From assembly GCA_022822365.1 (NCBI GenBank), contig JAJEBV010000050.1, positions 411 to 64,410 on the forward strand: a stretch of 64,000 bases of DNA, read 5' to 3'. The position numbers and the translations under genes were made by a program. This document shows positions 1,428 to 57,796 of this stretch, in pieces; position 1 is the first letter of the stretch; each line of letters begins with the position of its first letter. Under the pieces are notes generated by a model that searched no databases, was not told the DNA's origin, and worked only from the letters and a program-made list of their open reading frames with translations. The stretch is from Thermoanaerobaculia bacterium (lineage in GTDB: Bacteria; Acidobacteriota; Thermoanaerobaculia; Multivoradales; Multivoraceae).

Positions 1428-2351
1428 TCAAGGCTCGGCCCTCGATCCCAGCGGCGGCTGGGCGCGCAGGCGCTCGATGTGCTGTTCGATCGCGGCCTGG
1501 GCCTCCCGGGAGAACTGCAAGTGGCGTTCCGCACCCTCGCGGTCGCCGAGGCGGGCGAGGGCGAGGCTGAGCTGGTAGTGCCCCTTGATCGACTGGGTCT
1601 CGACGGCGACCGCTCGCGTGAGCGCTTCCCGGGCCTCGTCGAAGCGACCTTCCTTCACGCGAGCCGTTCCGATCGTCACCAGCGCCGTCGGATGGTCGGG
1701 ATTGACCGCGAGAGCCCGGTCCGCCAGTCGGGTTGCTTCGTCCAGGTCGCCGAGTCCCTCGACGGCCTCGGACATGGTGGCCAGCGCCTCCACGTTGCCG
1801 GGCTCCAGCCGCAGCGCCACGGCCAGCGCTTCCCGGGCCTCCTCGAAGCGGTCCACGCGGTTGAGCGCCAGCCCGAGACCGATGTGGGTCAGGGCTCGAC
1901 GCGGGTCGAGGGCCGCCGCATCCTGGAGCACCTCGGCCGCCTGCGCCATCTCGCCCACCTGCATGCGGGCCACGCCGAGCAGGTAGGCGTACTCCGCCTC
2001 TCCGGGGTGCATCCGGGCCAGCGGCTCGAGCGCCAGGATCGCCTGGATCGGGTTGCTTCGGCCGAGGGAGAAGCGGGCGTAGGCGTTGAGGACGTCCTCG
2101 GAGTTGGGCGCCAAAGTGATGGCGCGGCCGAGCGCTTCGGCGGCGGCTTCGGGTTGGTTGCGGCCGGCGAGGGTGCGGGCCTGGTCGAGGAGTGAGCGGA
2201 CGGACTCGGTCGGCGCGGCTTCGGGCTGGGCGGTGAGGGTGGTTGGGGCGAGGAGGAGGGAGAAGAGGGCTGCGCGGAGGAGGGGAACCGGCCTGCGGCC
2301 GGCGCGTTTCCTGGCCGCCTTCGGCGGCAGCGGGTCAGAGGACCCGCGCAC
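1428..2351 (-). CDS. TPR-repeat exported protein (start taken as GTG inside repeat element)
   Basis: The ORF track frame 1428..2366 shows multiple TPR-like helices (AEAL..A, YAYLLG, GLALNR, ...). The hydrophobic signal core '[24 protein letters not shown]' has no in-frame ATG or GTG downstream until about residue 118. The only plausible start is GTG at 2351-2349 inside the repeat, 10 nt after the upstream gene's stop. Confidence 0.6.
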
Positions 2352-2358
2352 CCAGCGG
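2291..2358. repeat. REP/MITE-like repeat, half-element (internal segment + F-arm 'GGCGGCAGCGGGTCAGAGGACCCGCGCACCCAG')
   Basis: Matches the right half of the full elements at 57611-57796 and 58251-58436. The arm is a hairpin GCGGGTC-AGAG-GACCCGC followed by the GCGCACCCAG tail. It lies in-frame in the 5' end of the TPR gene. Confidence 0.8.
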
Positions 2359-2362
2359 AAGG

Positions 2363-4633
2363 TCACTGGTCGGACCTTCTCTTGAGTCGCCGGAAGATCT
2401 CGAACTGCTCGCGCGCCTTCTCGCGGTCGCCGAGCTTCTGGTAGGCTAGGCCGAGCTGGTTGCGGATGTTGGGATCTTCCGGCGCCAGTTCCGCGGCCGC
2501 GAGCAACTGCGCGGCCGCCTCGTCGACGCGGCCGTCCTCGAGCAGGATCTTGCCGCGGAGGTAGCGGGCATCGACGAAGTCGGGTTCCGCGTCGAGCACG
2601 AGTTCCACTTCGCGCAACGCGGCCTGGGGCTGGTTGTCGAGTTCGAGGACGGTGGCCAGGACGTAGCGCGACTGGTGGTCGGCGGGATGGGAGACCAGTT
2701 CGGCGCGCAGCGCGGCGCCGGCTTCCTCGAGGCGGCCCTGGCGGAGATAGATGTTGCCGAGCGTGGCCTGCGCCTCGGCGACGTCGGGCCGCAGTTCGAT
2801 CGCGCGCTCCAGGTGCTCCACCGCGGCCTCGAAGTCGCCTTCCTGGGCTGCCGCCTGGCCGAGCAGCACGTTGAGTTCAGGCCAGTCCGCGTGCTCGGCG
2901 AGCAGGCGGTTGAAGATCGGCTGCGCCTCGACGGTCCGTCCGCTCCGGACCAGGGCCAGGCCGTAGGCGTACTGGAGCGAACGGTCGGCGGCGCGGGCCG
3001 GATCGGTGGCCAGCAGCTCCGCCGCGCGGTCGTAGACCTCGGCGTTGAGCCAGGCCAGAGCGAGCATCCGCCGCAGCGCGAGGTCGTCTGGCTGCCGCTC
3101 CAGCGCCGTCGACAGGGGCGTCGTCGCCTGCCCGAACTGCCCGGCGTTGAACCGGGCGACGCCCAGCGAGTACTGGACCCTCGGGAAGCCCGGATCGACC
3201 GAGGCGGCCTGCTCGAAGTGACCCGCGGCCCGGGTGAAGCGCCGGGCCTGCGTCGCCATCACGCCGAGATTGAACGAGGCGCGGGCGAGAGTCGTTCGCG
3301 CCGTTCGCACGAGCTGTGCCCGAACCTCCGGCGAGAGGCCGGAGACCGGCGTCTCGCTGAAGACGGACAGGCCGACGACCCCGGCCGACGGTTCCTTGCC
3401 ATGGCCGTCCAGGTAGTTCGACATGCGATCGCGCGAGGTCTGGGCCAGGGCCACCGAGAAGCGCTCGGCGGCCTCGAAGTGAGGCAGCGCCCGCGCCTCG
3501 TCTCCGGTGCGGCGCAGCGCCAGGGCGAGCTGGTAGTGGAGGCTCTCCATCTGGTTGGCGTTGAACGAGCCGCCGTAGCCGCCCTCCGCCAGGGCGATCG
3601 CGCTCTCGAGCGCGGTCGCCGCTTCCCCCGGCCGGTCGAGGCCGAGGAGAGCCCGGCCCAGATGGTGCAGCGCGTTGGGACGCGTGGACGTCGACTCCAC
3701 CGCGATCTCCAGAGAGGCCAGCGCCTCCTCGAAGCGCCGGGCATCGACCAGCACCATTCCCAGGTAGAGGTGGTTCACCGGATCCTCGGGCGAGATGCGG
3801 CGCTCCTCCTTGAAGTGGTCGATGGCCTCCTCGACGGCGCCGCGGCCCCGGTCCAGGAGCTCCACGGTCCCCAGGTAGAAGCGGGCACGCGGCACCCGCG
3901 GTTCTTCCTCGATGGCGCGTTCGAGCGCCTCGCGGGCCTTCCCGTACTCGCCGTAGTCGCGGTAGGTCCTGCCGATCAGAATCCAGGTCTGCGGAATCGG
4001 ACGCTCCTCGGCCACGTCCCGGAAGAGCCTCTCTGCGGCCTCCGGACGCTCCAGGCGGAGGTAGCCGCTGGCGAGGGCGAATCGGGTTTCCACGTCTTCC
4101 GGCGTGGACTCGACGGCTCGCTCCAACTGCTGCACCGCCATCTCCGGCTGGCCGCTCGCGTTGAAGGCCCGGGCGAGGAGCCGCACGGCGCGACCGTCTC
4201 CCGAACTGCGCGCCAGCAGACGCCGGAGGTGGTCCGCCGCGCCATCGGGATCGCCGCGCTCAAGCGCGAGTTCGGCGAGGGCGAGCAAGGGGCGACGCGC
4301 TTCGAGGGCGGAGACGAGGGCGCGTTCGTAGGCGGTCTCGGCCTCGGCCGGGGCGCCGCCGGCGCGCTGCAGGTCGCCGAGCAGCAGCCAGCCTTCGAGC
4401 AGGGCCTCCCGGTACCAGCTCTCGGCCGCCTGCGGTTCGTCGCGGCGAAGCATGGTCTCGGCCTCCGACAGGGCGCGCTGCATGGCGGCGTCGGGCGGCT
4501 CTTCCTGGGCCGGCGTCGACGCCGGCGCCGCGACCGCAAGAACCAGGGTCAGACCGCCAAAGCGGAGCCGGCCTGACGGCCGGCGCGTCTTTCCCGCCGC
4601 CTCCGGCGGCAGCGGGTCAGAAGACCCGCGCAC
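2363..4633 (-). CDS. large TPR-repeat exported protein (about 756 aa)
   Basis: Same frame as track ORF 2363..6391 but only the C-terminal about 750 aa is protein-like, with many TPR repeats ('AEAQATLGNIYLRQGRLEEA', 'NIRNQLGLAYQKLGDREKAREQF'). The signal core 'GGLTLVLAVAAPASTPAQEE' is preceded only by repeat-derived codons. GTG at 4633-4631 inside the repeat arm is the nearest in-frame start. The upstream 5' part of the track ORF is Arg-rich junk overlapping the VWA gene. Confidence 0.65.
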   Translation of the reverse strand: MRGSSDPLPPEAAGKTRRPSGRLRFGGLTLVLAVAAPASTPAQEEPPDAAMQRALSEAETMLRRDEPQAAESWYREALLEGWLLLGDLQRAGGAPAEAETAYERALVSALEARRPLLALAELALERGDPDGAADHLRRLLARSSGDGRAVRLLARAFNASGQPEMAVQQLERAVESTPEDVETRFALASGYLRLERPEAAERLFRDVAEERPIPQTWILIGRTYRDYGEYGKAREALERAIEEEPRVPRARFYLGTVELLDRGRGAVEEAIDHFKEERRISPEDPVNHLYLGMVLVDARRFEEALASLEIAVESTSTRPNALHHLGRALLGLDRPGEAATALESAIALAEGGYGGSFNANQMESLHYQLALALRRTGDEARALPHFEAAERFSVALAQTSRDRMSNYLDGHGKEPSAGVVGLSVFSETPVSGLSPEVRAQLVRTARTTLARASFNLGVMATQARRFTRAAGHFEQAASVDPGFPRVQYSLGVARFNAGQFGQATTPLSTALERQPDDLALRRMLALAWLNAEVYDRAAELLATDPARAADRSLQYAYGLALVRSGRTVEAQPIFNRLLAEHADWPELNVLLGQAAAQEGDFEAAVEHLERAIELRPDVAEAQATLGNIYLRQGRLEEAGAALRAELVSHPADHQSRYVLATVLELDNQPQAALREVELVLDAEPDFVDARYLRGKILLEDGRVDEAAAQLLAAAELAPEDPNIRNQLGLAYQKLGDREKAREQFEIFRRLKRRSDQ

Positions 4634-4640
4634 CCAGCAG
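4563..4640. repeat. REP/MITE-like repeat, half-element (internal segment + F-arm)
   Basis: '...gccggcctgacggccggcgcgtctttcccgccgcctccGGCGGCAGCGGGTCAGAAGACCCGCGCACCCAGCAG'. Same family as the other copies. Confidence 0.8.
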
Positions 4641-4674
4641 ACGCAGCCAGTTCGGCGGTGCACCGAACTCAACG

Positions 4675-6486
4675 TCAGTTCCCGGCCCCCTCGCCCACGG
4701 CCAGGGTGGTCGAGACGAACGCGGTCTCGCGCGTGGCGTCGTCCCGCACGCCGACCGCGACCAGGTTCAGGCCGTCCGGAATGTCGATGTTGAAGACCAG
4801 GTCGAGAAGGCGCGTGTCGCGATCCGGGGGCGCTTCCACCAGAAAGGTCTTCTCGTCCCTGACCACCCTCGAGGTCTGGGCGTGGCGGCTGGCGACCTCC
4901 ACCCGGATCTGCGCCATCTCCTTGTCCTCGAACGGCAGGAAGGCGACTCCCGCGGCCGGCACCATGACGTGGAGGGGCAGCCGCCGCTTGCCGCCGCCGG
5001 CCGCGCGAACGCGGCCCGCGCCCAGCCGCACGCCCAGCGGGTTCTCGACCAGACCGAGATAGAGCGCGCCGTCGAGCTGCTCGCTCATTCGCTGGTCGGA
5101 ACTCTTGTCGCGGTAGCCGCGGCGGTGGCGGACCTGCACGTTCCGGCCCCGGACCCGCACGCGGATCTGGTGTTCGCCGCGGTCGCCGCCATGGGGCGGG
5201 CGGTAGGCGAGCGAGTAGTAGCTCGCCATCTCGTCGGCGATCTGCTCGAGTTCGTCCGCGAACTGGTTGCGGTTGAAGATGGCGCGGCCGCCGGTCTCGT
5301 CGGCGAGCACGGCCATGCCGTCGCGTTCGGCTTCGCGAACCGAGCTGTTGAAGGGGTTCGCCCCCTGGAAGTCGATCGAGGACTGCTCCGCCGCGCTCAG
5401 GAACGCCGGGCGGAGGCCGCTGGTCTGGAGCGAGTAGACCGTCACGCGGTTCGCGTTGGCGTGACGGGTGAGCTCGTGGAATCCGCCCGACAGTTCCGCC
5501 ACCGGCGACTGCGAGCGGAACCGGTCGCCGGCGGGACACAGGCCGGTGATGAAGTCCCGCAAGTCGCTGCCGGGAGTCCGTTCGAGGGAGTCGCTGATGT
5601 AGAGCAGCGTCTTGACGCCGGGCAGCGCGGCCAGAAAGCGGACGGTCGTCGTCAGGTGATCGAGCGTCGCGCCGATCCGGTCGCGGCCGATGTGGGCGGC
5701 GTTCTCGACCTCGGGCAGCGCCTGGCGCACGAACGTTCCGCAGGGCGCCGGCGCCGAGTTCCGGCGGCTGCTGCCCGCCGAAGCGAGCGTCCTCGCGTCC
5801 TGCCAGAGCTGGTTCAACCGCCGTATCGCGAGCCGCTTCGCCTGCTGCGACTGGCCGCCCATTCCCGGCGAGGCCGCGATGCGCTCGAGCGCCGCGTCCA
5901 GGTCCTCGCGGCTGGAACCGAAGTAGGCCTCGGTGACGAGGTCGCGATCCTGGCGGAAGATGAGCACGCGTTCCGCCGGGAACCTCTCCTCGTCGAGGAA
6001 AGCTCTCAGATCCTCGATCGCCTGCTTGCGGCTGGCCGGACCGAGATGGAGTTCGTCGAAGTAGAGGACGAGATGCGCGGGTTCGGCCGCGGCCCCGGCT
6101 CCGGTTGCTTCCCGTTCGGCCGCCGGCTCGCCAGGCTCTCCAACCGGACTGGCGGACACGGCATCCGTGACCTCGCTGAAGAAGTCGATCGTCACCGGTT
6201 CGCCGTCCTCGCGCACCTCGAAGTCTTCCGGACCCAGGCCCGTCACCGGACGGCCGCGCCTGTCGCTGACCCAGACTTCGACGTTCACGAGCTGAACGTC
6301 GACGACTTCGCTGAAAGAGGGTGGCTCGGACTCCTGCGCCTGGGCGTGGGCGAAAGCCGGCCCCAGCACCGAGAACGCCATCGCCGGCCACGCGGACCAG
6401 AAACCCGGGGGTCGGCGTCGCGTCCGCGCGGCACAGGCGCGCGGGGGGGCGGCAGGAGCGCGGCCTGAACTTCTCAACATCATCAC
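4675..6486 (-). CDS. von Willebrand factor type A (VWA) domain exported protein
   Basis: 603-aa ORF with a basic N-region plus hydrophobic 'FWSAWPAMAFSVLGPAFAHAQAQE' signal. A VWA-like fold region follows ('LVLYFDELHLGPASRKQAIEDLRAFLDE...'), with a metal-ion-dependent-adhesion-site-like 'ISDSLE'. It is adjacent to TPR genes, a Bat-like arrangement. An alternative start at ATG 6381 is possible. Confidence 0.65.
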   Translation of the reverse strand: MMMLRSSGRAPAAPPRACAARTRRRPPGFWSAWPAMAFSVLGPAFAHAQAQESEPPSFSEVVDVQLVNVEVWVSDRRGRPVTGLGPEDFEVREDGEPVTIDFFSEVTDAVSASPVGEPGEPAAEREATGAGAAAEPAHLVLYFDELHLGPASRKQAIEDLRAFLDEERFPAERVLIFRQDRDLVTEAYFGSSREDLDAALERIAASPGMGGQSQQAKRLAIRRLNQLWQDARTLASAGSSRRNSAPAPCGTFVRQALPEVENAAHIGRDRIGATLDHLTTTVRFLAALPGVKTLLYISDSLERTPGSDLRDFITGLCPAGDRFRSQSPVAELSGGFHELTRHANANRVTVYSLQTSGLRPAFLSAAEQSSIDFQGANPFNSSVREAERDGMAVLADETGGRAIFNRNQFADELEQIADEMASYYSLAYRPPHGGDRGEHQIRVRVRGRNVQVRHRRGYRDKSSDQRMSEQLDGALYLGLVENPLGVRLGAGRVRAAGGGKRRLPLHVMVPAAGVAFLPFEDKEMAQIRVEVASRHAQTSRVVRDEKTFLVEAPPDRDTRLLDLVFNIDIPDGLNLVAVGVRDDATRETAFVSTTLAVGEGAGN

Positions 6487-16658: not shown

Positions 16659-16671
16659 TAGCGCCGCTTCC

Positions 16672-16812
16672 CACTGGGTGCGCCGGCGTCCCCGCCGGCT
16701 GCTGAGGAAACGGGTCGGCCGGAGGCCGGCTCCGCCTCCGTTTCCGCTGGGTGCGCGGGTCTTCTGACCCGCCGCCGCCGAAGGCGGCTTTGAATCGCCG
16801 GCCGAAGGCCGC
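16672..16812. repeat. REP/MITE-like repeat (B-type head 'CACTGGGTGCGCCGGCGTCCCCGCCGGC' + R-arm + internal segment)
   Basis: 'CCGCTGGGTGCGCGGGTCTTCTGACCCGCCGCCGCCGAAGGCGGCTTTGAATCGCCGGCCGAAGGCCGCC' is the reverse complement of the F-arm/internal consensus. It lies between the symporter stop and vapB. Confidence 0.8.
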
Positions 16813-16873
16813 CAATTCTCCCGCAGCCGAACGTCATCTTGACAGCTCTGGTGAATAGCATCATGATGCCTCC

Positions 16874-18551: not shown

Positions 18552-20080
18552 GGGCTGTCTCCTGTCGCGGTGGCCGCGAACGCGGAGGTCCGTTCGCAGA
18601 CCGTCTTCACGTCGCAGTAGAAGTCGAACGAGTGGCGGCCGCCCTCGCGGCCGATGCCCGAGTGCTTCGTGCCGCCGAACGGCGTCTCCAGGTCGCGAAC
18701 GTAGAAGCAGTTGACCCAGATCGTGCCGGCGCTGATCCGCCGCGAGAGACGGTCGGCGCGGGCCTCGTCGCCGGTGAAGATCATCGCGGCGAGCCCGTAG
18801 TCCGTCGACTCGGCGAGCGCGATCGCTTCCTCGTCGCCCTCGAACGTCTGCAGGGTGAGCACCGGCCCGAACACCTCCTCGCGGAGGATGTCGGCACCGG
18901 GCGGCACGTCGGCGAACAGGGTCGGCGGATAGTAGAGCCCGCCGCTGCTCTTCCCGCCGAAACGGAGCGCCGCCCCCTGGGCGAGCGCCTTCTCGACGTG
19001 GCTTTCGACGCGCGCCAGCGCGCGAGGATGGATCAGCGGGCCGTAGGTCGTCGCGGCTTCCCGCGGGTCGCCGACGCGGATCGCCTCGACTTCCGCCAGG
19101 AACCGCTCCATGAAGGCCTCGAGGCAGCTCCGCTCGATCAGCAGCCTGGTTCCGGCCAGGCAGACCTGGCCCGAGTTGTCGTACTGGTAAGCAGCGGTTC
19201 GGGCAGCCGCCTCGAGGTCGGCGTCGGCGAAGACGAGGAACGGCGACTTGCCGCCGAGTTCGAAGGAGACGGGAGTGAGCTCCGCCGCCGCGGCGGCCCC
19301 CACCGAGCGGGCGGTCGCCGGCGAGCCGGTGAAGGCGATCCGGTCGACGCCGGGGTGGCCGGTCAGGAGAGCCCCCGTCTCCGGCCCGCCGTGGACGATG
19401 TTCAGCACTCCCGGCGGCAGCCCGGCCTCCTCGGCCAGGTCGCCGAGCAGCGAGCAGGTCAGCGGCGCCCACTCCGGCGGCTTGAGGACGACCGTGTCGC
19501 CGGCGGCGAGCGCCGGGCCGACCCGCCAGGTCGCCAGCATGAAGGGCGCGTTCCAGGGCGTCGACACGGCGACGACCCCGGCCGGATCGTGACGGACCGT
19601 GTTCCGCTCGCCGCCGTGCAGCGTGCGGGCCGGCTCGGCCAGGCGCGACACCGCGTACTCGGCGAAGAAACGGAAGTTCATCCCGCCGCGCGGGATCACC
19701 CGCTCCCGCATCGCCTCCAGCAGGGAACCGTTGTCGACGGTCTCGACCTGGGCGATCTCGGCGGCCCTCCGCTCGACCTCGGCAGCAAGGCGCAGCAGGT
19801 ACGGCGCCCGGCCCTCAGGACCCAGCGCCGCCCAGTCCGGGAACGCGTCGCTCGCCGCCGCGACGGCGGCGTCGACCTCCGACGCCCCCGCCTCGGGAAG
19901 CTCGGCCAGCTTCCAGTCCCAGTCGATCGGCGAACGGACCTCGAAAGCGGCGCCGGCACCGACCCGCCGGCCGCCGATCAGGTGGCCCGTCGGTACGGCG
20001 ACGCCTTCGACATCGACGCGCGCCGCCGGAACGCCAGATGCCGGCCGGAAGGCCGGCGCACCCAGTGGTTCGGCCGTCAC
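18548..20080 (-). CDS. NAD(P)-dependent aldehyde dehydrogenase (hydroxymuconic-semialdehyde dehydrogenase-like)
   Basis: 'HLIGG', 'FTGSPATARSV', 'ELGGKSP' and the catalytic 'GQVCLAG' motifs. Start taken as GTG overlapping the upstream stop in 'GTGA' (20080-20077). The upstream part of the track ORF is junk. Confidence 0.8.
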   Translation of the reverse strand: MTAEPLGAPAFRPASGVPAARVDVEGVAVPTGHLIGGRRVGAGAAFEVRSPIDWDWKLAELPEAGASEVDAAVAAASDAFPDWAALGPEGRAPYLLRLAAEVERRAAEIAQVETVDNGSLLEAMRERVIPRGGMNFRFFAEYAVSRLAEPARTLHGGERNTVRHDPAGVVAVSTPWNAPFMLATWRVGPALAAGDTVVLKPPEWAPLTCSLLGDLAEEAGLPPGVLNIVHGGPETGALLTGHPGVDRIAFTGSPATARSVGAAAAAELTPVSFELGGKSPFLVFADADLEAAARTAAYQYDNSGQVCLAGTRLLIERSCLEAFMERFLAEVEAIRVGDPREAATTYGPLIHPRALARVESHVEKALAQGAALRFGGKSSGGLYYPPTLFADVPPGADILREEVFGPVLTLQTFEGDEEAIALAESTDYGLAAMIFTGDEARADRLSRRISAGTIWVNCFYVRDLETPFGGTKHSGIGREGGRHSFDFYCDVKTVCERTSAFAATATGDSP

Positions 20081-26534: not shown

Positions 26535-29293
26535 TGGGCGGGTCCGATCCCCAGTTCCCGCAGGCGCGCCTCGTCTTCCGCATACTCGCGCTGGATCGCC
26601 TCCAGCTCGGCGTCGATCGCCTGCTTCGACCACCACCTGTCGCGGAACATCAGGCCGCGAATCCTACGCGCGTTGGCGATGTCGTCGAGCGGGTTCGCGT
26701 CGAGGAGCAGCACGTCGCCGCGCGCGCCCACGGCAAGCACGCCGAACTCGCCTTCCCGGTTCATGTAGCGGGCGGCCTCCGAGGTCGCGGCCTCGAGCGT
26801 CTGGTACGGCGTGAGACCCGCCTCGACGAACAGGCCCATCTCCCGGTGGACGGTGTAGCCGGCGGCCGACACGTCGGTGCCGATGAGAAGGGGCGCCCCC
26901 GCGTCGTGGAGCGCCTTGACCAGGCCGAGCCGCGCGGAGCGCGTCCCGGTGATCCCAGCCCGCTCGCGCGGTCCGTAGAGGTTGTAGAGCCACGCGATGC
27001 CGCCGGGCGTCGTCGGGTGCTCGTACTTGCCGATCTCGCCCGCGTCGCGTTCCGGCCGGTCGAACTCGGTCACCGTGCTGTCCCACAGCGCGAGGGTCGG
27101 CACGTTCCAGACCTCGTACCTCGCGGTCAGCGCCGCCAGCTCGGCCACCTTGTCCGGCGAGCACCACGCCCAGCCCTGGTAGATGTCCCGCGGAACCGGT
27201 TTCATCCTCACGTGCGGCGCCGCGCAGGCGACGTCGTAGCCGGTCAGGTGCTCGATAGAGCGCAATCCCCGCTCCAGCGCGTGTTCCAGCGGCACCCGGA
27301 TCGGCACGTGGGCAGCGACCGTCAGGCCCACTTCCGCGGCGGCGGTCATCACCGCGTCGAACACCTCCGGGCTGAGCGCGGTGTAGACCTTGGCCAGGTC
27401 GTACCCCTCCGCCGCGCTCCGGCGAATGAACTCCGCTGCTTCCCCGGGCTCCGTGAACGTCCGCGGCACCGGGAAGAGCGGCGGGTCGCCGTCCATCAGC
27501 GGCGACGAGACGAAGATCCGCGGCCCGAACAGCTCGTCGCGTTCGATCGCGTCGCGCATCTCCAGGATCAGGCGGCCGCCGGACGGATCTCTCGTCGTGG
27601 CGACGCCGAACATGACGTACTGCCTCAGGTTCTGGTCGCGCATCCGGATCCGCGAGGCATCCGTGCCGTCCCAGGCGAAGCCGCCGAAGTGGTTGTGCAT
27701 GTCGGCGAGCGCCGGTATGACGAACCTGCCGGCGCCGTCGATGACCTGGGCGCCGGCGGGCGTGCAGCCGGGACTGCTGGGGCAGATGTCGGCGATCCGC
27801 TCGTCGCGGATGACCAGGGTGTGGTCCTCGAGGACGGAAGGCGTACGCGAGGTCATCGGGATGAGGGTCGCGTGCTCGATGGCGGTCGCGGCGGTCGCGG
27901 CAGTCGTCGGGGCGGCGGTGAGCCGCACGAGCGCGCCGGGGTTGTTGAGCAGCAGGTAGAGCGCGCCGTCCGGGCCGGTCTTGATGTCGCGGATGCGGCC
28001 GTGGCCCTTGAACAGGAGTTCCTGGCGGGTGACGCGGCCGCCGTCGATCTCCAGGCGGCGGAGTTCCTCGAAGGAGAGCGACCCGACCAGCAGGTCGCCC
28101 CGCCAGCGCTCGAAGCCGGGGCTCGACACGAACTCGATCGGGCCGACGGCGAGCCCCGGTGTCCACTCGACGACGGGCGGCACGATGCCGTCGGCGTGCG
28201 TCCGGTCGCTGATCACCGAGCCGTCGTAGTTGACGCCGAACGTGACGACCGGCCAACCGTAGTTCCCGCCCGGAGCGAGGAGGTTCAGCTCGTCGCCGCC
28301 ACGCGGGCCGTGCTCGGCGGCCCAGATCGCGCCGGTCTCCGGGTGCTGGGCCATGCCCTGGACGTTCCGGTTGCCGAGGGTGAACACCGCGCCGAGCGCT
28401 CCGTCCTCGCCGGCGAAGGGGTTGTCCTCCGGGATGCCGCCGTCCGGGCGGATGCGGAAGACCTTGCCCGAGGGCATGGCGGCGTCCTGCGAGTTCATCG
28501 CCGCGCTCATGTCGCCGATCGAGAAGTACAGGAGGCCTTCGCGGTCGAAGAGCAGGCGGCCGCCCCAGTGCTTGCTGTCGGGCAGGTGGTACTCCGGACC
28601 GAGCCGGAACAGGTACTCCGTGTCCAGCCAGCGGTTGCCGTCGACGCGGCCGCGGATGATCCGCGTCAGCCCCGGGGCGTAGCGGTCGTTCGGGTCTTCC
28701 GAGTGGCTGATCGCCGCGTAGACCCATCCGTTCTCCGCGTACTCCGGGTCGAGCGCGATGTCCATCAGCCCGCCGGTCGAGGTTGCAAGGTCGACCGGCG
28801 GCAGTCCGGTGATCCGATCCGGGTCGACCCTGCCATCCCGGTACCGCAGCAGGTAGCCCGCGTCCTCCGAGATCAGCCCCTCCGCCGGCCCGGTGAACTC
28901 GATGCCCCAGGGGTTCTCCAGTTCGTCGGTGGCCAGGTACTCGACCCGCAGGGTGTAGTGCTCCGTCTCCACCGTGGACGGCAGCGGCCTGGCGATCCAG
29001 GTCGGCTCCGTCTGCCGGCTGTAGATCAGCTCGACCAGGGCCGACATTTCCTCGTCCGAGAGCTCGCCGAGGTAGCCCGGCATGTCCGTGCCCGGGATGC
29101 CATGCCGGATGTTGCTCTCGACCGAGAAACCGTCCCGGCCGAAGCGCCAGTCCGACTTGATCAGCGGCTCCGCGAGTCCGCCCTCGAGCGCCTGCCCGTG
29201 GCAGCCGCCGCAGTGGAGGCGGTAGAGGGCACGCGCGTCCGGTTCGGCCGCCGCGACGGGGGCGGCAAGGAACAGAAGCAGGACGCTTCCCAC
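26531..29293 (-). CDS. tri-domain fusion: c-type cytochrome + SGDH-like (soluble PQQ glucose/sorbosone dehydrogenase) beta-propeller + metal-dependent amidohydrolase
   Basis: One continuous frame holds 'CGGCHG' (CxxCH heme site), then SGDH-like blades ('NPWGIEF', 'GGLMDIALDPEY', 'GNYGWP'), an Ala/Thr linker 'TAAPTTAATAATA', and an amidohydrolase 'ALADMHNHFGG...' domain. Start set at GTG 29293 (signal 'GSVLLLFLAAPVAAA'). It may instead start within the upstream repeat. Confidence 0.55.
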   Translation of the reverse strand: MGSVLLLFLAAPVAAAEPDARALYRLHCGGCHGQALEGGLAEPLIKSDWRFGRDGFSVESNIRHGIPGTDMPGYLGELSDEEMSALVELIYSRQTEPTWIARPLPSTVETEHYTLRVEYLATDELENPWGIEFTGPAEGLISEDAGYLLRYRDGRVDPDRITGLPPVDLATSTGGLMDIALDPEYAENGWVYAAISHSEDPNDRYAPGLTRIIRGRVDGNRWLDTEYLFRLGPEYHLPDSKHWGGRLLFDREGLLYFSIGDMSAAMNSQDAAMPSGKVFRIRPDGGIPEDNPFAGEDGALGAVFTLGNRNVQGMAQHPETGAIWAAEHGPRGGDELNLLAPGGNYGWPVVTFGVNYDGSVISDRTHADGIVPPVVEWTPGLAVGPIEFVSSPGFERWRGDLLVGSLSFEELRRLEIDGGRVTRQELLFKGHGRIRDIKTGPDGALYLLLNNPGALVRLTAAPTTAATAATAIEHATLIPMTSRTPSVLEDHTLVIRDERIADICPSSPGCTPAGAQVIDGAGRFVIPALADMHNHFGGFAWDGTDASRIRMRDQNLRQYVMFGVATTRDPSGGRLILEMRDAIERDELFGPRIFVSSPLMDGDPPLFPVPRTFTEPGEAAEFIRRSAAEGYDLAKVYTALSPEVFDAVMTAAAEVGLTVAAHVPIRVPLEHALERGLRSIEHLTGYDVACAAPHVRMKPVPRDIYQGWAWCSPDKVAELAALTARYEVWNVPTLALWDSTVTEFDRPERDAGEIGKYEHPTTPGGIAWLYNLYGPRERAGITGTRSARLGLVKALHDAGAPLLIGTDVSAAGYTVHREMGLFVEAGLTPYQTLEAATSEAARYMNREGEFGVLAVGARGDVLLLDANPLDDIANARRIRGLMFRDRWWSKQAIDAELEAIQREYAEDEARLRELGIGPAQ

Positions 29294-29441
29294 TGGGTGC
29301 GCGGGTCTTCTGACCCGCTTCCGCCGGAGGCGGACCAAGCGCCGGCCGAAGGCCGACAGTCTCCCCGGCCTGCGCCGCACCGCGGCGCCTGGACCGGGGG
29401 GCGGGTCATAAGACCCGCGCACCCAGCGTCTGCCGCCGGCG
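29289..29441. repeat. REP/MITE-like full element (R-arm ... spacer ... degenerate F-arm)
   Basis: 'CCCACTGGGTGCGCGGGTCTTCTGACCCGC...GGCGGGTCATAAGACCCGCGCACCCAGCG'. It fills the gap between the amidohydrolase stop (29448) and the cyt-c fusion gene. Confidence 0.8.
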
Positions 29442-29447: not shown

Positions 29448-31250
29448 CTAGTTGCCACCGGCGGTGTACACCCTCTCACCCGCGATGAACGTCATCTCCA
29501 CCTTCGTCCGGTGGACCGCCGTCGGCTCGACGTCGAACGGGTTCTGCGACGTGACGACGAGATCCGCCTCCTTGCCGACCTCGATCGTGCCGACCTTGTC
29601 GCCCTGGCCCATCAGGCGGGCGCCGTTCCAGGTCAGGATGCGCAGCGCGTCCTCCAGCGTCACCTGCTCCTGGAGGCCGAGGGTGTCCTCGCTGCCGCCG
29701 GGAACCTGGCGGGTCACCATCGTCTCGACGGCGAGCCACGGGTCGACCAGGGGCACGACCGGCCAGTCCGAGCCGGCCGCGACCAGGGCGCCGGTTTCGA
29801 GGGCGTCCCGGATCGGCACCCAGCGCTTCATCCGCTCGTCGCCGACCGCCTTGCGAATGTCGATCGCGGCCATCGGCGTGGGGAACCAGATGTAGGGCGA
29901 GAACTCCCACGCCATGCCGAGCTCGCGCGGCCTGGGAATGTCGGCCGGGTCGGCGAAGGTGCTGTGGGCGACGTCGTGCATCGGACCGCCGAAGCCGTTC
30001 CGTTCCCGGGCCGCCGCGACTGCGTCGATCGCGGCCCGCACCGCGCCGTCGCCGGCGGCGTGCATCTTCACATGCAGTCCCTGGCGGTCGAAGGCCGTCA
30101 CGGCATTGTTCAGCGCTTCCTGCGGAACCAGGAGCAGCCCGAGCTTCGGCCGCGGATCGTCCTCGCCGGTCGTGTCCTCGTAGGGCGCGAGCATCGACGC
30201 CGTGTGGCTCTCCGTCGGCACCCCGTCCAGCATGATCTTCACGCAGTCGACCTTCAGGCGTTCGCTCTCGTAGGTCGCCCGGATCGCTAGCTGGGACTCG
30301 GCGGCGTAGGCCTGGGCCGGGTCGTGCCCCCAGGCGACGCAGGCCCGCACCCGCTGCTTCAACGTGCCCTCGCGCGCCAGTCGGGCCAGCGCGCCGAGCT
30401 GCCAGGAGTTCGCGTAGGCCACCGTGAACGAGGTGATGCCGTGGGCCAGCATCTCGTCGGTCGCGATCTTCATGCCCTCCATCTTCCGCGCGTCCGAGGC
30501 GGGAGGGATCACGGACGCCACCATGGCGTTGGCCGTCTCGCGCAGCAGGCCGTTCGGCTTGCCGTCCGGGCCGCGCTCGATGATCCCGCCCTCCGGATCC
30601 GCCGTGTCGCGGTCGATGCCGGCGACTTCCAGGGCCTTCGTGTTGACCCAGACGCTGTGGTGGGACTCGTCGTAGAGGAACACCGGGTTGTCCGGCGCCA
30701 CCGCGTCGAGGAACTGCCTCGTCTGCTGGCCGGGCTCGAACACCGCCGCCACCCAGTTGCCGCCGTTGATCCACTCCCCCGGCTCGGCCCGGGAGGCGCA
30801 GTCGCCGACCGACTCCGCGATGATGTCCGGCGTCGCCCCCGGAGGCAGGCGGCAGGAGAACTCCTGCATGCCGGCGATCAGCGGATGGACGTGGACGTCG
30901 TGGAAGCCGGGGAAGACGGTCCGGCCCGCCAGGTCGATCACGTCGGTCGAGTCCGTGCGGAACGCGGCGACGGAGGCGCTGTCGCCGACCGCGACGATGA
31001 CGCCGTCGCGGACCGCGATCGACTCCGCCCAGCCGGCCGGCGTGTAGACCTGGCCGCCGTCGAGGATCGTGTCGGCCGGGTCGTTGCGCGACGGCGCCGG
31101 TTCGCCTGCCTGGAACTGGGCGAGGGCGGGTTGGGAGGCGATCGCAGCGAGGGTCAGGCTGAGGATGTGCGCGGCAAGACGGAGTCGGCCTGACGGCCGA
31201 CGCGCGTTTCCGGCCGCCTTCGGCGGCAGCGGGTCGGAAGACCCGCGCAC
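29448..31250 (-). CDS. amidohydrolase-3 family (YtcJ-like) exported metal-dependent hydrolase
   Basis: 'PGFHDVHVHP', 'VKMHAAGDGAV', 'GSDWPV' amidohydrolase signatures. The hydrophobic core 'LAAHILSLTLAAIASQPALAQ' has no downstream in-frame ATG or GTG. The only plausible start is GTG 31250-31248 inside the repeat arm, giving the leader '[24 protein letters not shown]'. Confidence 0.65.
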   Translation of the reverse strand: MRGSSDPLPPKAAGNARRPSGRLRLAAHILSLTLAAIASQPALAQFQAGEPAPSRNDPADTILDGGQVYTPAGWAESIAVRDGVIVAVGDSASVAAFRTDSTDVIDLAGRTVFPGFHDVHVHPLIAGMQEFSCRLPPGATPDIIAESVGDCASRAEPGEWINGGNWVAAVFEPGQQTRQFLDAVAPDNPVFLYDESHHSVWVNTKALEVAGIDRDTADPEGGIIERGPDGKPNGLLRETANAMVASVIPPASDARKMEGMKIATDEMLAHGITSFTVAYANSWQLGALARLAREGTLKQRVRACVAWGHDPAQAYAAESQLAIRATYESERLKVDCVKIMLDGVPTESHTASMLAPYEDTTGEDDPRPKLGLLLVPQEALNNAVTAFDRQGLHVKMHAAGDGAVRAAIDAVAAARERNGFGGPMHDVAHSTFADPADIPRPRELGMAWEFSPYIWFPTPMAAIDIRKAVGDERMKRWVPIRDALETGALVAAGSDWPVVPLVDPWLAVETMVTRQVPGGSEDTLGLQEQVTLEDALRILTWNGARLMGQGDKVGTIEVGKEADLVVTSQNPFDVEPTAVHRTKVEMTFIAGERVYTAGGN

Positions 31251-31450
31251 CCGGAGCACGCGCTTGGCCGGAAGGAGAGTGTCTGCTGTAAGCGCATCGA
31301 TCGCAGTGACGCCATGACGGTTGCAGAACAGAAGCGGGCTCCCGGCGAGATGGCTCTCTGGGTGCGCGGGTCTTCTGACCCGCCTCCGGGCGGAGCCGCG
31401 AAGCGGCGCAGCCCGGACAACAGGGCCGCCGGCCGAAGGTCGGCGACGAT
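31181..31450. repeat. composite REP/MITE-like repeat (F-arm + about 95-bp spacer-2 + R-arm)
   Basis: F-arm 'GGCGGCAGCGGGTCGGAAGACCCGCGCACCCGGAG' at about 31221-31255 and R-arm 'CTCTGGGTGCGCGGGTCTTCTGACCCGCC' at about 31355-31383. The spacer ('...agtgacgccatgacggttgcagaacagaagcgggc...') is homologous to the spacer of the composites at 47.1 kb and 50.4 kb. Confidence 0.8.
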
Positions 31451-31467
31451 TCTCGCGGCGAGGACTC

Positions 31468-33165
31468 CTACTTCTCATGGACGATCTCTCCTGCGTAGAG
31501 GGTCAACTCGACGGTCGTGTCGCTGACGTCCTCGACCGGCACCTCGAAGAGGTTGCGGTCGAGGACGATCAGGTCGGCGGACTTGCCGGCGGCGATCGTT
31601 CCGGCTCGCGACTCGACGCCCAGCAGGCGTGCACCGGCCAGCGTGTAGAGCTCGATCGCTTCTTCCAGGGTCACGGCCTGCTCCGGCGCCAGGGTGCCGG
31701 GATACCCGCCCCAGGGGTCGGCGCGGGTGACCAGCGCCTCCATGCCGGGCCAGGGGTTCATGTCCGGGATGACGGCGGGCCAGTCCGAGCCGACGATGAC
31801 GTGGGCGCCGGCGTCGAGCAGTTCCCGCACCGGCCAGGAGCGGTCGGCGCGGTCACCGATGGCGGCGCGGATGGAGTCGGAGATCAACGACGGGTACCAG
31901 ATCGCCGGCGACATGTCGGCGATGGCGCCGAGCTCGGCGAAGCGCGGCACGTCTTCGACCGCAACGAAGCCGGTATGGGCGAGCTGGTGCATCAGCCCGG
32001 AGTCGCCGTTCTGCTCGCGCGCGAACTCGACCGCGTCGAGCGCGACCCGGACCGACCGGTCGCCCGCGGTGTGGATGTTCACCGTAACGCCGAGCGCGTC
32101 GAGCTGCTGCAGCCAGACGTTCAGCGCTTCCGGCGGCACCAGCAGTTCGCCGTTGTGGCTCGGGCCTCCCGGCACTTCCGGCTCGTAGTCGTCGAGCATC
32201 GCCGCCGTCCGCGCGATGGACGGCACGCCGTCCAGGAAGATCTTCACGTGGTCGACGTCCAGGTTGGCGGCCCGGTTCTCCTCGCGCAGACGCTCCAGGG
32301 CGTCGACGTCCAGGTCGAGCGTGCCGGCGACCAGCGGAATCGCGATCGAGGCGGCCATGTGGACGGTCAGCGCGCCCTCGTCGGCCAGCGCCTTGTAGGC
32401 GGCGACGCCCGTGCCCTCGTCGCCCGCTTCCTTGAGGCCGACGATGCCGAAGCCGTTCGCCGTCCGGATCGACTCGCGGGCGGCGCGCAGGAACTGCTCC
32501 GCCGTCTTCTCGGGGATCGCCTGGAACACCGGGTACATCGCCGCCTCGAGCAGCAGGCCGTTCGGCTCGCCGGTGTGCTCGTCCAGCACGACATCGCCGC
32601 CTTCGACGGCCGTGCTGGCGTCGATACCGGCAAGCTCGAGCGCCCTGCTGTTCACCCAGCGGTTGTGGCCCGTGTCGTCCGCGAGGCTGATCGCCACGCC
32701 GCCCGAGAGCCGGTCCAGCCACTCGCGCGGCGAGCCGATCTCGTGGTCGACGAAGAAGTTGCTCGTCCAGCGTCCGCCCTCGATCCAGGCCGCGTCCGGA
32801 TCGGCGGCGACGCAGGCGGAGAGCGTCTCCTCGATCTCCGTTGGTCCGGCGGTCGGCGGGAACAGGCACTGGAGCAGCACCTCCGTGCCTCCCAGCACCG
32901 GATGGACGTGGACGTCGTAGATGCCCGGCATCGCCATTCGGCCTTCGAGATCGCGGACTTCGGTGTCCGGGCCGCGGTGCTCGAGTGCGCCGGCGGTCGA
33001 GCCGACGAACGTGAACTCGCCGCCCGCGATCGCGACCGCTTCCGCCCAGGGCCGGGCGTCGTCGAGGGTGTAGACGCGGCCGTTGGTCAGGATCAGGTCG
33101 ACGTCGCCGTCGCCCGAGGGAGCGCAGGCGAGGGCCAGGGCGATCAGCAGCAGGAGCGGCCGCAC
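31468..33165 (-). CDS. amidohydrolase-3 family lipoprotein (paralog of 29448..31250)
   Basis: GTG start at 33165 gives 'MRPLLLLIALALACAPSG' (lipobox LALAC). 'IYDVHVHP', 'VNIHTAGD', 'GSDWPA' motifs. The start codon abuts the tail of the B-type repeat. Confidence 0.75.
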   Translation of the reverse strand: MRPLLLLIALALACAPSGDGDVDLILTNGRVYTLDDARPWAEAVAIAGGEFTFVGSTAGALEHRGPDTEVRDLEGRMAMPGIYDVHVHPVLGGTEVLLQCLFPPTAGPTEIEETLSACVAADPDAAWIEGGRWTSNFFVDHEIGSPREWLDRLSGGVAISLADDTGHNRWVNSRALELAGIDASTAVEGGDVVLDEHTGEPNGLLLEAAMYPVFQAIPEKTAEQFLRAARESIRTANGFGIVGLKEAGDEGTGVAAYKALADEGALTVHMAASIAIPLVAGTLDLDVDALERLREENRAANLDVDHVKIFLDGVPSIARTAAMLDDYEPEVPGGPSHNGELLVPPEALNVWLQQLDALGVTVNIHTAGDRSVRVALDAVEFAREQNGDSGLMHQLAHTGFVAVEDVPRFAELGAIADMSPAIWYPSLISDSIRAAIGDRADRSWPVRELLDAGAHVIVGSDWPAVIPDMNPWPGMEALVTRADPWGGYPGTLAPEQAVTLEEAIELYTLAGARLLGVESRAGTIAAGKSADLIVLDRNLFEVPVEDVSDTTVELTLYAGEIVHEK

Positions 33166-33272
33166 ACTGGGTGCGCCGGCACCCTCGCCGGCTCTCGGGC
33201 GACGCCGCGGAGCGGTGGCGACCGAGGTCAACTCGCGAGGCCGCAGGCCTCTCCTTCGCACCCAGTGGCGCC
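33163..33272. repeat. B-type REP-like element ('CACTGGGTGCGCCGGCACCCTCGCCGGC ... GCACCCAGTGGCGCC')
   Basis: Shares the 'CTGGGTGCGC' head. It lies between the TonB receptor stop (33272) and the amidohydrolase start. Confidence 0.7.
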
Positions 33273-38262: not shown

Positions 38263-39552
38263 ATGACGAGTCGACGCCTGGTTGGTTTTGCGTTCTGCCT
38301 GGTCTTTGCCGCGGCGGCCCACGGCGCTGCTGACGCGGAAGGGCCGACATTCTATGAGGATGTCCTGCCCATCCTGCAGCAGAACTGCCAGGAGTGTCAC
38401 CGGCCGTCGGGCAGCAAGATCTACCGGGGCGGCGTGCCCATGTCGCTCACGACGTACGAGGAGGCCCGGCCCTGGGCGCGCTCGATCGTCCGCATGACGG
38501 CGTCGAAGGAGATGCCGCCGTGGGACGCCTCCGAGCACTTCGACGGCGTGTTCCGGAACGAGCGCGGCCTGACCGACGGGGAGATCGCAACGCTGAAGCG
38601 CTGGGTCGAGGCGGGCGCGCAGTCCGGCCGTCCCGAGAACGGCCCCGCGCCCATCGAGTGGCCCGACGACGACGGCTGGGTGTTCACCGATCCCGACCTC
38701 GTGCTCAAGATGCCCGAGCCCTACTACGTCGAGGACGACATCAAGGACGTCTACACCAAGCACCGCCTGATCCTGACTCCGGACCTCCTGCCCGAGGACA
38801 AGTGGGTGCAGGAGATCGAGTTCCGCCGCGGCAGCGAGCTCGTCCACCACTTCAACATCTTCGTCAAGAGTCCGGACGACGAGGAGACCCGCGGCGACGG
38901 GAACTACCTCGGCGGCGCCACGTCAGGCTCGCCGCCGCACGTGTGGCCGGAGGGCTACGGCTCGCTGCTGCGGACCGGCGACACGCTGACCTTCGACCTG
39001 CACTACCACAAGGAGCCGGGCCCCGGCAGCGGCGGCTGGGACCAGTCGTCCATCGCGCTCAAGTTCGCGACGAAGCCGGTCGAGCACCCGATCCACTTCT
39101 TCCCGATCAGCAACTTCGAGTTCGAGATTCCGGCCAACCACGACTACTGGCACGACACGGCCGAACGGACGTTCGAACGCGACGTGACGATCCTCGGCAT
39201 GCTCCCCCACATGCACATGCGCGGCCGCGAGGCGAAGTACACCGTCCTCTACCCGGACGGCCGCGAGGAGCAGATCCTCCACGTGCCGGACTGGGACTTC
39301 GACTGGCAGGAGATCTACTGGTACGACGAGCCGAAGGTACTGCCCGCGGGCAGCACCCTGCGCATCGACATGTGGTTCGACAACTCGCCCGAGGAGGCGG
39401 AGCGCTGGGGCTTCAACCCGGACCGCGTCGTGACGTTCGGGCCGGAGTCGACCGACGAGATGCTGATGGGCTTCATCTCCTGCGTCTACAACGACGAGGA
39501 GCCGCCCAGGGCGCGCCTGCCCGGCGTGATCGAGACGACCGGCGGGGAGTAG
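38263..39552 (+). CDS. exported c-type cytochrome domain protein with C-terminal PHM/DBH-like (copper monooxygenase-like) domain, tentative
   Basis: SD 'GGGAGGG' precedes ATG and a signal peptide. Single 'CQECH' heme motif. C-terminal 'HFNIFV...HYHKEPG...HMHMRGR...DWDFDWQ' resembles the His-rich/Met copper sites of the peptidylglycine monooxygenase fold. This is fold-level inference only. Confidence 0.5.
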   Translation: MTSRRLVGFAFCLVFAAAAHGAADAEGPTFYEDVLPILQQNCQECHRPSGSKIYRGGVPMSLTTYEEARPWARSIVRMTASKEMPPWDASEHFDGVFRNERGLTDGEIATLKRWVEAGAQSGRPENGPAPIEWPDDDGWVFTDPDLVLKMPEPYYVEDDIKDVYTKHRLILTPDLLPEDKWVQEIEFRRGSELVHHFNIFVKSPDDEETRGDGNYLGGATSGSPPHVWPEGYGSLLRTGDTLTFDLHYHKEPGPGSGGWDQSSIALKFATKPVEHPIHFFPISNFEFEIPANHDYWHDTAERTFERDVTILGMLPHMHMRGREAKYTVLYPDGREEQILHVPDWDFDWQEIYWYDEPKVLPAGSTLRIDMWFDNSPEEAERWGFNPDRVVTFGPESTDEMLMGFISCVYNDEEPPRARLPGVIETTGGE

Positions 39553-47010: not shown

Positions 47011-47029
47011 GCGGCCGATGCTAGCGCTA

Positions 47030-47372: not shown

Positions 47373-47388
47373 AAGGGGGCGCCTACCC

Positions 47389-57586: not shown

Positions 57587-57610
57587 CCGGGAATCGTAGC
57601 GCGGCAACCT

Positions 57611-57796
57611 CCGCTGGGTACGCGGGTCTTCTGACCCGCCCCGGGTGAAGCCGCGGAGCGGCGGAGCCCGGAGCAAGGCGGCCGCCGGCGAAGCCGGCGA
57701 CGATACTGAAGCCGCCCGGAGGGAAGGTCGGCCCTCCGGCCGGCGTTTCAAAGCCGCCTTCGGCGGCAGCGGGTCAGAAGACCCGCGCACCCAGCA
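57611..57796. repeat. REP/MITE-like full element (R-arm + about 125-bp spacer-1 + F-arm), direct copy of 58251..58436
   Basis: 'CCGCTGGGTACGCGGGTCTTCTGACCCGCCCCGGGTGAAGCCGCGGAGCGGCGGAGCCCGGAG...GGCCGGCGTTTCAAAGCCGCCTTCGGCGGCAGCGGGTCAGAAGACCCGCGCACCCAGCAG', about 95% identical to the second copy. Confidence 0.9.

Follow-up and report, generated by a model that had tools for sequence, protein, structure and literature searches.

The stretch of DNA studied here, 64,000 nucleotides of contig JAJEBV010000050.1 from a Thermoanaerobaculia bacterium (hereafter the window), raises the question of where translation begins in several of its genes for exported proteins. Arms of a hairpin-forming repeat, whose conserved head (CTGGGTGCGC) holds a GTG codon, lie inside the 5' ends of two genes for tetratricopeptide repeat (TPR) proteins, TPR1 and TPR2, and of one amidohydrolase gene, amidohydrolase 1. 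A preliminary description took the repeat for a portable module that brings its own start codon, the head GTG, together with the basic n-region of a signal peptide. The comparison with related genomes suggests a different answer: the repeat is probably a selfish, non-autonomous hairpin element resembling repetitive extragenic palindromic (REP) sequences and MITEs (miniature transposable elements with inverted repeats), which is tolerated and translated in gene starts, and not a dedicated start or signal-peptide module.

Starts of the TPR1 and TPR2 genes

The window has a G+C content of 68.8%, and the genes near the three arms are all on the minus strand. The TPR genes present the following features.

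1428..2366, minus strand: TPR1 gene, 312 aa, TPR repeats, exported (Pfam; signal peptides of orthologues).
2287..2355, minus strand: TPR1 arm, consisting of the head and three hairpins, inside the 5' end of the gene in frame 0; absent in the related loci L107 and L111.
2364..2366, minus strand: GTG start of TPR1, overlapping the TGA stop of TPR2 as GTGA, 4 codons upstream of the arm; probable native initiator.
2363..4672, minus strand: TPR2 gene, exported TPR protein, 769 aa from the TTG (Pfam; orthologues).
4568..4637, minus strand: TPR2 arm inside the 5' end of the gene, frame 0; the orthologues L106, L107, P0131 and P0134 are repeat-free.
4661..4672, minus strand: probable native starts of TPR2, TTG 4672..4670 (2 nt after the upstream TGA) and GTG 4663..4661, 9-12 codons upstream of the arm.

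In agreement with the preliminary description, the arms at 2355..2287, 4637..4568 and 31253..31180 (minus strand) are in frame with TPR1, TPR2 and amidohydrolase 1, respectively, with the head read as TGG GTG CGC (WVR...), and the peptide strings quoted there are correct. Nor are the arms passive spacers: in each of the three they belong to the open reading frame (ORF) of the gene, and the basic n-region therefore consists largely of them. The statement that no in-frame start follows the repeat holds as regards the signal peptide, since no ATG, GTG or TTG lies between head and hydrophobic core in any of the three genes, yet not as far as the first TPR motif, which in TPR2 is preceded by an in-frame ATG (MQRAL) that several public gene calls use. 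The head GTG is, however, not the sole plausible initiator: in-frame canonical starts are present just upstream in all three genes (GTG 2366; TTG 4672 and GTG 4663; GTG 31259 and ATG 31478).

Because repeat-free orthologues show that these proteins are exported, a start is needed upstream of the hydrophobic core, and in the window such starts occur only in or upstream of the arm. As far as sequence can show, the arms are translated in TPR1, TPR2 and amidohydrolase 1. The repeat-free orthologues have short, classic signal peptides, both in TPR1 (MSDRLLGAALFVLLLAP / MSDRLLGAALFVLLLAPSAPRAQ in L107; MKKALFSLLLLP / MKKALFSLLLLPAALVAQP in L111) and in TPR2 (MVARRFHAGALVLALALALA and MSDRPCWALALVLAAVLPAP; MVARRFHAGALVLALALALAAELPAAT in L107 and MSDRPCWALALVLAAVLPAPTQSQ in L106), and comparison with them places the native start of both genes upstream of the arm, where it is kept with or without the repeat (10-11 genomes).

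For TPR1, all 11 genomes compared have the GTG that overlaps the TPR2 stop. In these genomes the distance from this start to a conserved ESVR anchor is 72, 87, 159, 168, 204 or 216 nt (i.e., always a multiple of 3), and the interval is always free of stops. The length differences are due to the arm itself, to changes of 9 and 27 nt between start and head, to an extra 51-nt hairpin unit in L110, and to a 12-nt head-like remnant in L108; TPR1 orthologues carry GGGTC/GACCC or CCGGCC/GGCCGG stems at the same site.

For TPR2, each of the 10 genomes has, no more than 11 nt from the upstream stop, a TTG or GTG that is in frame with an open stretch behind it, across eight different lengths, all of them multiples of 3 and stop-free. 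At this site L106 and L107 have no repeat, and L108 has a single hairpin following MVARR. The window-type arm also occurs; in L109 it holds a nested insertion of 21 nt, and an ACG-to-ATG change inside it yields MRRPSGRLLFGGLALVLAF. The further forms are hairpin-less remnants reading MLRVRGSSLGLVLVAGLAAAQ (L110, L112) or lying in frame 1 (L114), two arms in frames 0 and 1 (L111), and an unrelated frame-1 arm in which the frame of the head GTG runs into a stop (L113). Loci L112, L113 and L114 were chosen as possible counter-examples, their public gene calls being shortened, but they also keep the frame and hence are not counter-examples.

Given initiation inside the arm offers no reason for the segment between start and arm to keep its frame, the upstream starts are the likely initiators of both genes. 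TPR1 very probably initiates at the conserved GTG 2366, translationally coupled to the TPR2 stop, with the arm read through; for TPR2, initiation at the conserved upstream TTG or GTG, again with read-through of the arm, is likely. A sequencing frameshift or a pseudogene was ruled out as the origin of these arrangements, which recur in independent assemblies with intact ORFs.

Two further observations concern the TPR1 start. At L108 3759-3800, a repeat-free start of native length, the 12 nt GAC TGG GTG CGT (MKDWVRSAALF...) stand where L107 has CGC CTC CTC GGC; this head-like stretch may have been left by an excision or introduced by conversion. In the predicted RNA fold of window positions 2346-2366, CCAGUG of the TPR1 start region pairs with CGCUGG of the repeat head.

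Amidohydrolase 1 and neighbouring loci

The situation is different in amidohydrolase 1, where the arm belongs to a larger composite element.

29448..31259, minus strand: amidohydrolase 1, YtcJ-like, Amidohydro_3, exported (Pfam; about 100 orthologues with classic Sec signal peptides).
31180..31253, minus strand: forward arm in frame 0, at the 5' end of amidohydrolase 1.
31248..31259, minus strand: GTG CTC CGG GTG, with two repeat-derived GTGs (at the end of the composite core and in the head); probable initiators, at which the public call P0001 starts.
31254..31440, no strand assigned: rest of the composite element (105-bp core 31254-31358 and opposite arm 31359-31440), between the end of amidohydrolase 2 and amidohydrolase 1.
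31476..31478, minus strand: ATG after GGAGAG, overlapping the end of amidohydrolase 2; ancestral start position, common to L105, in frame and 75 codons upstream of the head.
33168..33265, no strand assigned: whole element between the upstream TAG stop and the start of amidohydrolase 2 (GTG 33165..33163, MRPLLLLIALALAC).
29293..29426, no strand assigned: whole element with inverted heads at both ends, open in the gene frame, between the amidohydrolase 1 stop and a gene fusing cytochrome c (cyt-c), GSDH and amidohydrolase domains.

Repeat-free orthologues of amidohydrolase 1 have short, classic signal peptides (MKRTIGLAIAG..., MKRTIGLAIAGVMVCAALALTSTTAKAQA and about 100 similar N-termini). In the Holophagales orthologue L105 (88%), an ATG after AGGAGG overlaps the end of the upstream amidohydrolase, and a frame-1 arm lies between this ATG and the hydrophobic core. 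In the window, the 75 codons from ATG 31478 through reversed arm, core and forward arm are stop-free and in frame. The 98% relative L117, however, has lost the ATG by a synonymous CAT-to-CAC change in the upstream gene, and its 81 open codons hold no canonical start before GTG CTC TGG GTG, both GTGs of which are repeat sequence. Because of this loss, a repeat-derived GTG is on balance the probable initiator of amidohydrolase 1. ATG 31478 is thereby ruled out as an obligatory start, and it is probably dispensable.

A similar replacement is suggested by the amidohydrolase 2 orthologue of L080, whose site holds only the head and hairpin 1. Here the head GTG gives (M)RGSSDPLLLLIALALAC and has probably taken over as initiator, the alternative being an in-frame ATG 12 codons upstream that overlaps the preceding gene.

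The cyt-c fusion gene had been described as reading an entire element in frame as an N-terminal extension. The element is indeed open in the gene frame, but a GTG at its end (29293..29291) directly precedes the hydrophobic core. At this locus L105 has a reversed arm and L117 a forward arm in frame 1. The gene itself also varies: with its C-terminal amidohydrolase domain (26531-27921) it encodes 920 aa in the window and 963 aa in L105, whereas this 1.4-kb part is absent in the 97% relatives L076 and L117 (464 aa). The amidohydrolase part is a recent domain fusion or loss.

Frame usage and host proteins

Whether the repeat is specific to one frame or to exported proteins was evaluated on the window plus 104 related loci (105 sequences, 212 arms), considering the arms that point into coding regions on the same strand. 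Frames 0, 1 and 2 were found in the ratio 20:20:13 for type A and 7:10:4 for type B, which does not differ from uniform usage (chi-square of about 1.9 for type A, 2 degrees of freedom). Frame 1 is used in L113, L114, L105 and the L117 cyt-c gene, and frame 2 in L038 and at window position 20064. The earlier statement that a single arm frame is used is thus contradicted within the window, by the arm at 20027-20074, and beyond it, where all three frames are used, even in orthologues of one gene. Leaders in frame 1 or 2 also precede signal peptides in L029, L038, L042, L043 and L094, often after a start with a good Shine-Dalgarno sequence or one overlapping a stop; the L043 lipoprotein reads RGSSDPHQARCRAAASPRYPLALILLLIAC.

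N-termini resembling signal peptides were detected in 53 of 118 repeat-adjacent genes (45%), in comparison with 144 of 391 others (37%), giving an odds ratio of 1.4 (p = 0.13) with a crude detector of hydrophobic stretches. Given this weak detector, there may be a modest enrichment of export among the truly embedded copies, about 11 of 16 of which are in exported proteins as judged by eye. A preference of embedded copies for exported hosts is what tolerance of the n-region would predict.

The signal peptides were assigned by inspection. Those of the three proteins and their orthologues are of the Sec type (i.e., basic n-region, hydrophobic core and small-x-small cleavage site). A twin-arginine (Tat) signal, which the preliminary description had considered, was rejected: RRPSGRL and RRPVPLL depart from the S/T-R-R-x-F-L-K consensus, and the repeat-free orthologues (MSDRLLG..., MKKALF..., MSDRPCW...) are ordinary Sec-type sequences without paired arginines.

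In-frame fusions into cytoplasmic enzymes were also found, contrary to the proposed association with exported proteins; hosts of this kind are among what the preliminary description itself had listed as evidence against its model. The example in the window is the following.

20027..20074, minus strand: short arm with head and GCCGGCC hairpin variant, frame 2, in a cytoplasmic aldehyde dehydrogenase gene (Aldedh, Pfam).

This insertion is of exactly 48 nt (16 codons), two codons after a GTGA-overlap start, and the site is empty in L036. Elsewhere, an arm splits domain I (PGM_PMM_I) of the phosphoglucomutase/GlmM-like protein P0243, which has a second copy further on; the repeat is in frame in ThiE (L075, L096); and a solo head with hairpin 1 is in frame in the middle of a zinc alcohol dehydrogenase gene, between ADH_N and ADH_zinc_N (L014, minus strand, head at about 2990). 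When the 31-aa arm peptide was searched with HMMER against 1.84 billion representatives, a query too short for such a search, six matches were returned, one of which is the GlmM-like case. In the Tgt gene of L027 (minus strand, head at about 3572), the head is preceded by a stop at a distance of 3 codons and followed, 34 residues on, by the beginning of the TGT domain. The head GTG, as the only canonical start candidate before this domain, appears to be a repeat-derived initiator.

Two of these copies have unusual flanks. The mid-gene copy of L014, unlike those at other sites, has about 33 nt of the host sequence directly duplicated on its flanks (GACCGGGCCGG.CTCGC...CGAG). Flanking the L027 Tgt arm, an inverted copy reproduces the first codons of the gene perfectly over 21 nt (GAAGCGGTTTGCATGGAACTG ... 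CAGTTCCATGCAAACCGCTTC).

Anatomy of the repeat

The conserved form of the head is (C)ACTGGGTGCGC. Directly 3' of it stands hairpin 1, with a 7-bp stem and a tetraloop (GCGGGTC-TTCT-GACCCGC). In longer arms this is followed by hairpin 2 (GCCGCC-GAAG-GGCGGC), a short A-rich spacer and hairpin 3 (GCCGGCC-NNN-GGCCGGC), both hairpins being optional, and units range from 25 to about 190 nt. A 33-nt core pattern has 9 matches in the window and none in 100 shuffles, while a looser scan yields about 24 heads in the 64 kb. The arms are predicted to fold as three consecutive hairpins with -47 to -69 kcal/mol (-46.8 kcal/mol for the TPR1 arm).

In the 0.9 Mb of DNA fetched, the head GGGTGCGC followed by a hairpin with a 7-bp stem occurs in 238 units. 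The variants of hairpin 1 are discrete and their stems fully compensated (181 GCGGGTC/GACCCGC, 37 GCCGGCG/CGCCGGC and 6 GCCGGCC/GGCCGGC), and the variation of hairpin 3 is likewise compensated. Units are arranged solo, in tandem (in the window, heads at 16675 and 16748), as inverted pairs forming elements of 100-190 nt, or as pairs pointing outward from the 105-bp core. Whole elements with inverted heads at both ends are located at 29293-29426, 33168-33265, 51984-52125, 57604-57794 and 58249-58436. Most copies are intergenic, and the contexts include the spacer between convergent genes as well as mid-gene positions.

31254-31358, 47186-47271 and 50430-50515: core with outward arms; similarity is 93% between the copies at 47186 and 50430, and about 75% for that at 31254.

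The core forms a hairpin of its own (GTGGTTCTG-TTC-TGGAACCGT), and its last letters before the head are GTGCT; the motif GTGCTCTGGGTGCGC is also present at the core-arm junctions 47281 and 50421. The core has no Rfam match and no promoter-like site, a scan of 31100-31520 for consensus promoters and terminators being empty. Rfam likewise gave no family match for the whole window at gathering thresholds, nor for 47000-47420 at E <= 1.

With its usual CAC flank (CACTGGGTG) the head is nearly self-complementary, and a GTG stands at the outer end of the element either way, as TGG-GTG in forward and CCA-GTG in reversed orientation; the reversed form is used at 29293 and adjoins the start at 33165. 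Tandem arrays of 3-4 head and hairpin units, resembling variable-number tandem repeats, occur in L022 1900-2090 (period 40 nt), L017 2800-2910 (28), L080 470-620 (31) and L092 at about 6190-6300 (35). The database 'proteins' P0241 and P0246 are nearly all translated repeat arrays of a related variant and are probably spurious ORFs.

Distribution and mobility

Among the matches listed, the exact 24-nt pattern of head and hairpin 1 was found in at least 100 stretches from about 25 metagenome-assembled genomes (MAGs), labelled Thermoanaerobaculia, Holophagales, Acidobacteria or 'Candidatus Multivorans'. Judging from their isolate names, several of these MAGs are presumably sponge-derived. The repeat family is thus abundant in Acidobacteriota of the Thermoanaerobaculia / 'Ca. 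Multivorans' type. It appears to be undescribed: a search of full texts for its sequence yielded no paper, and one by lineage name yielded none on such a repeat.

Copies are gained, lost and exchanged between close relatives. In syntenic relatives of 92-97% identity, the sites at 16660-16858 (tandem arms), 20027-20074 and 57604-57794 are empty, and other repeat forms are present at 33168-33265 and 39553. An example of this mobility is the following.

57604..57794, heads at both ends: whole intergenic element, cleanly absent in the relative L071.

At the orthologous sites, L036 and L071 have empty ones, and L080, L104 and L106-L114 show variant forms. The element is therefore mobile or recombinationally unstable over the time in which these species have diverged. 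A related observation is the solo hairpin at 39552-39584, between two convergent genes, whose counterpart in L104 (7132-7233) is about 100 nt longer and holds nested hairpins.

Explanation favoured and alternatives

The picture that accounts best for these results is that the repeat would spread, or be exchanged between copies, as a selfish element, a mechanism of transposition and a mobilising enzyme being presumed. In a gene-dense genome with many GTGA, ATGA and TTGA overlaps, copies would be kept mostly in very short spacers and among the opening codons of genes, where insertions downstream of a start could persist only if frame-preserving and stop-free, and would then be translated. The GC-rich hairpins would encode peptides rich in Arg, Lys, Gly, Pro, Ala and Ser. 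In exported hosts such a peptide would merely lengthen the positive n-region and be removed by signal peptidase, at small cost, while cytoplasmic hosts would gain a disordered tail or loop; the insertions may accordingly be close to neutral. Where the native start has been displaced or has disappeared, a repeat GTG (in TGG-GTG-CGC, or in the GTG-CTC just before) could take over, as has probably occurred in amidohydrolase 1, in the L027 Tgt gene and in the L080 amidohydrolase 2.

The portable module of the preliminary description, with its own head GTG and a dedicated basic n-region, used in one frame for proteins exported by Sec or Tat, is quite improbable in our estimation. Its start-codon part has some basis, in that a repeat GTG is the probable start of amidohydrolase 1 and the repeat-derived GTGs are the sole canonical ones in L117; near-identical frame-0 arm leaders of three exported proteins in the window also agree with it, as do the leaders of the L080 amidohydrolase 2, the L043 lipoprotein and, from an ATG in the arm, L109 TPR2. 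The native starts of TPR1 and TPR2, however, are conserved and always in frame through many indels, frames are mixed, and some hosts are cytoplasmic or hold the insertion mid-gene. Frame-1 orthologues put the head GTG out of frame or into a stop, the aldehyde dehydrogenase uses frame 2, and the uniform overall frame usage, the non-significant link to signal peptides and the failure to match the Tat consensus all argue against such a module. The head has no sequence of Shine-Dalgarno type before it, and 1 nt after its GTG a stable hairpin begins. Were the arms instead untranslated leaders or spacers, with initiation downstream at a non-canonical codon or an internal Met (MQRAL... for TPR2), the n-region or the whole signal peptide, conserved in repeat-free orthologues, would be deleted, and the preservation of frame through every repeat variant would go unexplained. 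Gene callers do use internal starts in the TPR2 orthologues P0123, P0124, P0126, P0128 and P0130, and CTG and ATC codons lie within the hydrophobic cores of TPR2 and amidohydrolase 1; TPR1, though, has no ATG, GTG, TTG, CTG or ATH codon from the arm to the end of its core, and we consider this possibility the most remote of those weighed here.

REP elements affect mRNA stability and translation, and the hairpins might similarly have been recruited at the RNA or DNA level, for tuning of coupling or initiation, slowing of early elongation, mRNA stability or protein binding, with their position at gene starts under selection. Stems fully compensated even inside coding sequence, hairpin 3 included, are consistent with this, as is the persistence of copies at the same gene starts across species with 75-95% identity. 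Yet the sites are often empty or reduced to hairpin-less remnants in close relatives that keep the gene (L107, L108, L110-L112, L114), copies turn up in contexts of all kinds, the space between convergent genes and mid-gene positions among them, and replacement of whole hairpin variants is explained more simply by conversion from other copies, so that recruitment is unlikely. The more far-reaching proposal, a genome-wide cis-element that donates start codons and Arg-rich n-regions to many exported proteins, with hairpins setting coupling, initiation or early pausing, possibly a factor recognising the head, and selection for insertion, is to be regarded as very unlikely.

Several points weigh against the explanation we favour, namely a selfish repeat tolerated in gene starts. 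In the window alone, 9-10 of the 12 gene-facing arms are in frame 0, a bias we treat as chance because the larger sample is uniform. No clear target-site duplication is present at the filled and empty pairs window-L071 and window-L036, which is inconsistent with the duplication of about 33 nt in L014, and with E. coli RayT as tblastn query the window and 114 loci, 0.9 Mb of fragments, yielded no transposase, with nothing below E = 0.28. The n-regions, of 27-40 residues (about 100 from ATG 31478), are unusually long for a Sec signal peptide, and initiation ought to be impeded by stable hairpins (-47 to -69 kcal/mol) within 10-30 nt of the start, except where it is coupled to upstream termination. 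Selection for structure, and hence a function, could account for the fully compensated hairpin variants in place of copy-to-copy conversion. Finally, initiation sites and protein N-termini were derived by comparing sequences.

Comparison with known repeats

In behaviour, the closest known system is that of the Rickettsia palindromic elements (RPEs), palindromic repeats fused in frame with many unrelated ORFs (PMC10969869). The present repeat is likewise short, hairpin-forming, in frame and translated in unrelated genes (TPR1, TPR2, amidohydrolase 1, aldehyde dehydrogenase, GlmM-like, ThiE, Tgt and alcohol dehydrogenase). Unlike RPEs, it belongs to another phylum (Acidobacteriota) with 69% GC, has smaller modular units, and is mostly intergenic; its intragenic copies cluster in the first codons and the signal-peptide n-region, and three frames are translated where RPEs have one conserved peptide per family. 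No sequence relationship with RPEs is apparent, no Rfam family being matched.

Mycobacterial interspersed repetitive units (MIRUs) insert at start codons inside operons, preserving downstream translation (PMC12548453), and resemble the repeat as short mobile sequences at gene junctions or start codons that form variable tandem arrays. However, MIRUs carry their own small ORF with a 4-nt overlap with the downstream gene, whereas the present repeat forms part of the host ORF, downstream of the native start, with no separate coupled ORF, and has hairpins and inverted-pair forms.

REPs and the composite BIME and REPIN forms (bacterial interspersed mosaic elements; REP doublets forming hairpins) combine a conserved motif with an imperfect palindrome, and occur in hundreds of copies, inverted doublets, short spacers and discrete families (PMC3116915, PMC3337134). 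The repeat shares with them the linear motif and palindrome, the high copy number, the inverted doublets, either orientation in spacers and the discrete families. By definition, though, REPs are extragenic and have a cognate RAYT (REP-associated tyrosine transposase), while here some copies are intragenic and translated and none was found for RAYT in the 0.9 Mb of fragments; the head also differs from GTAG-type REP heads.

MITEs, such as Correia elements in Neisseria and enterobacterial repetitive intergenic consensus (ERIC) sequences in enterobacteria, can modify neighbouring genes at their ends or produce fusions (PMC10969869). The repeat has the same ability and is similarly small and non-coding, with terminal inverted repeats (in the 100-190-nt elements) and presence/absence polymorphism, but no consistent target-site duplication was seen for it, and it has no known parent insertion sequence and is built of stacked short hairpins instead of one long palindrome.

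Significance

The results have a practical consequence for annotation. Public starts of the TPR2 gene are inconsistent: some calls take the TTG, some an ATG that lies in the repeat, and some an internal Met, with loss of the signal peptide. Predictions of localisation and signal peptides for these sponge-associated Acidobacteriota will inherit such errors. The same variation constitutes a natural insertion experiment on n-region tolerance, in which two signal-peptide n-regions carry from 0 to about 45 extra repeat residues, in different frames, in about 10 genomes. Moreover, amidohydrolase 1 and Tgt suggest that a selfish repeat can supply a new initiator once the original start is displaced or lost. 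With this repeat, the small set of bacterial repeats translated inside genes, exemplified by RPEs, would gain an acidobacterial member.

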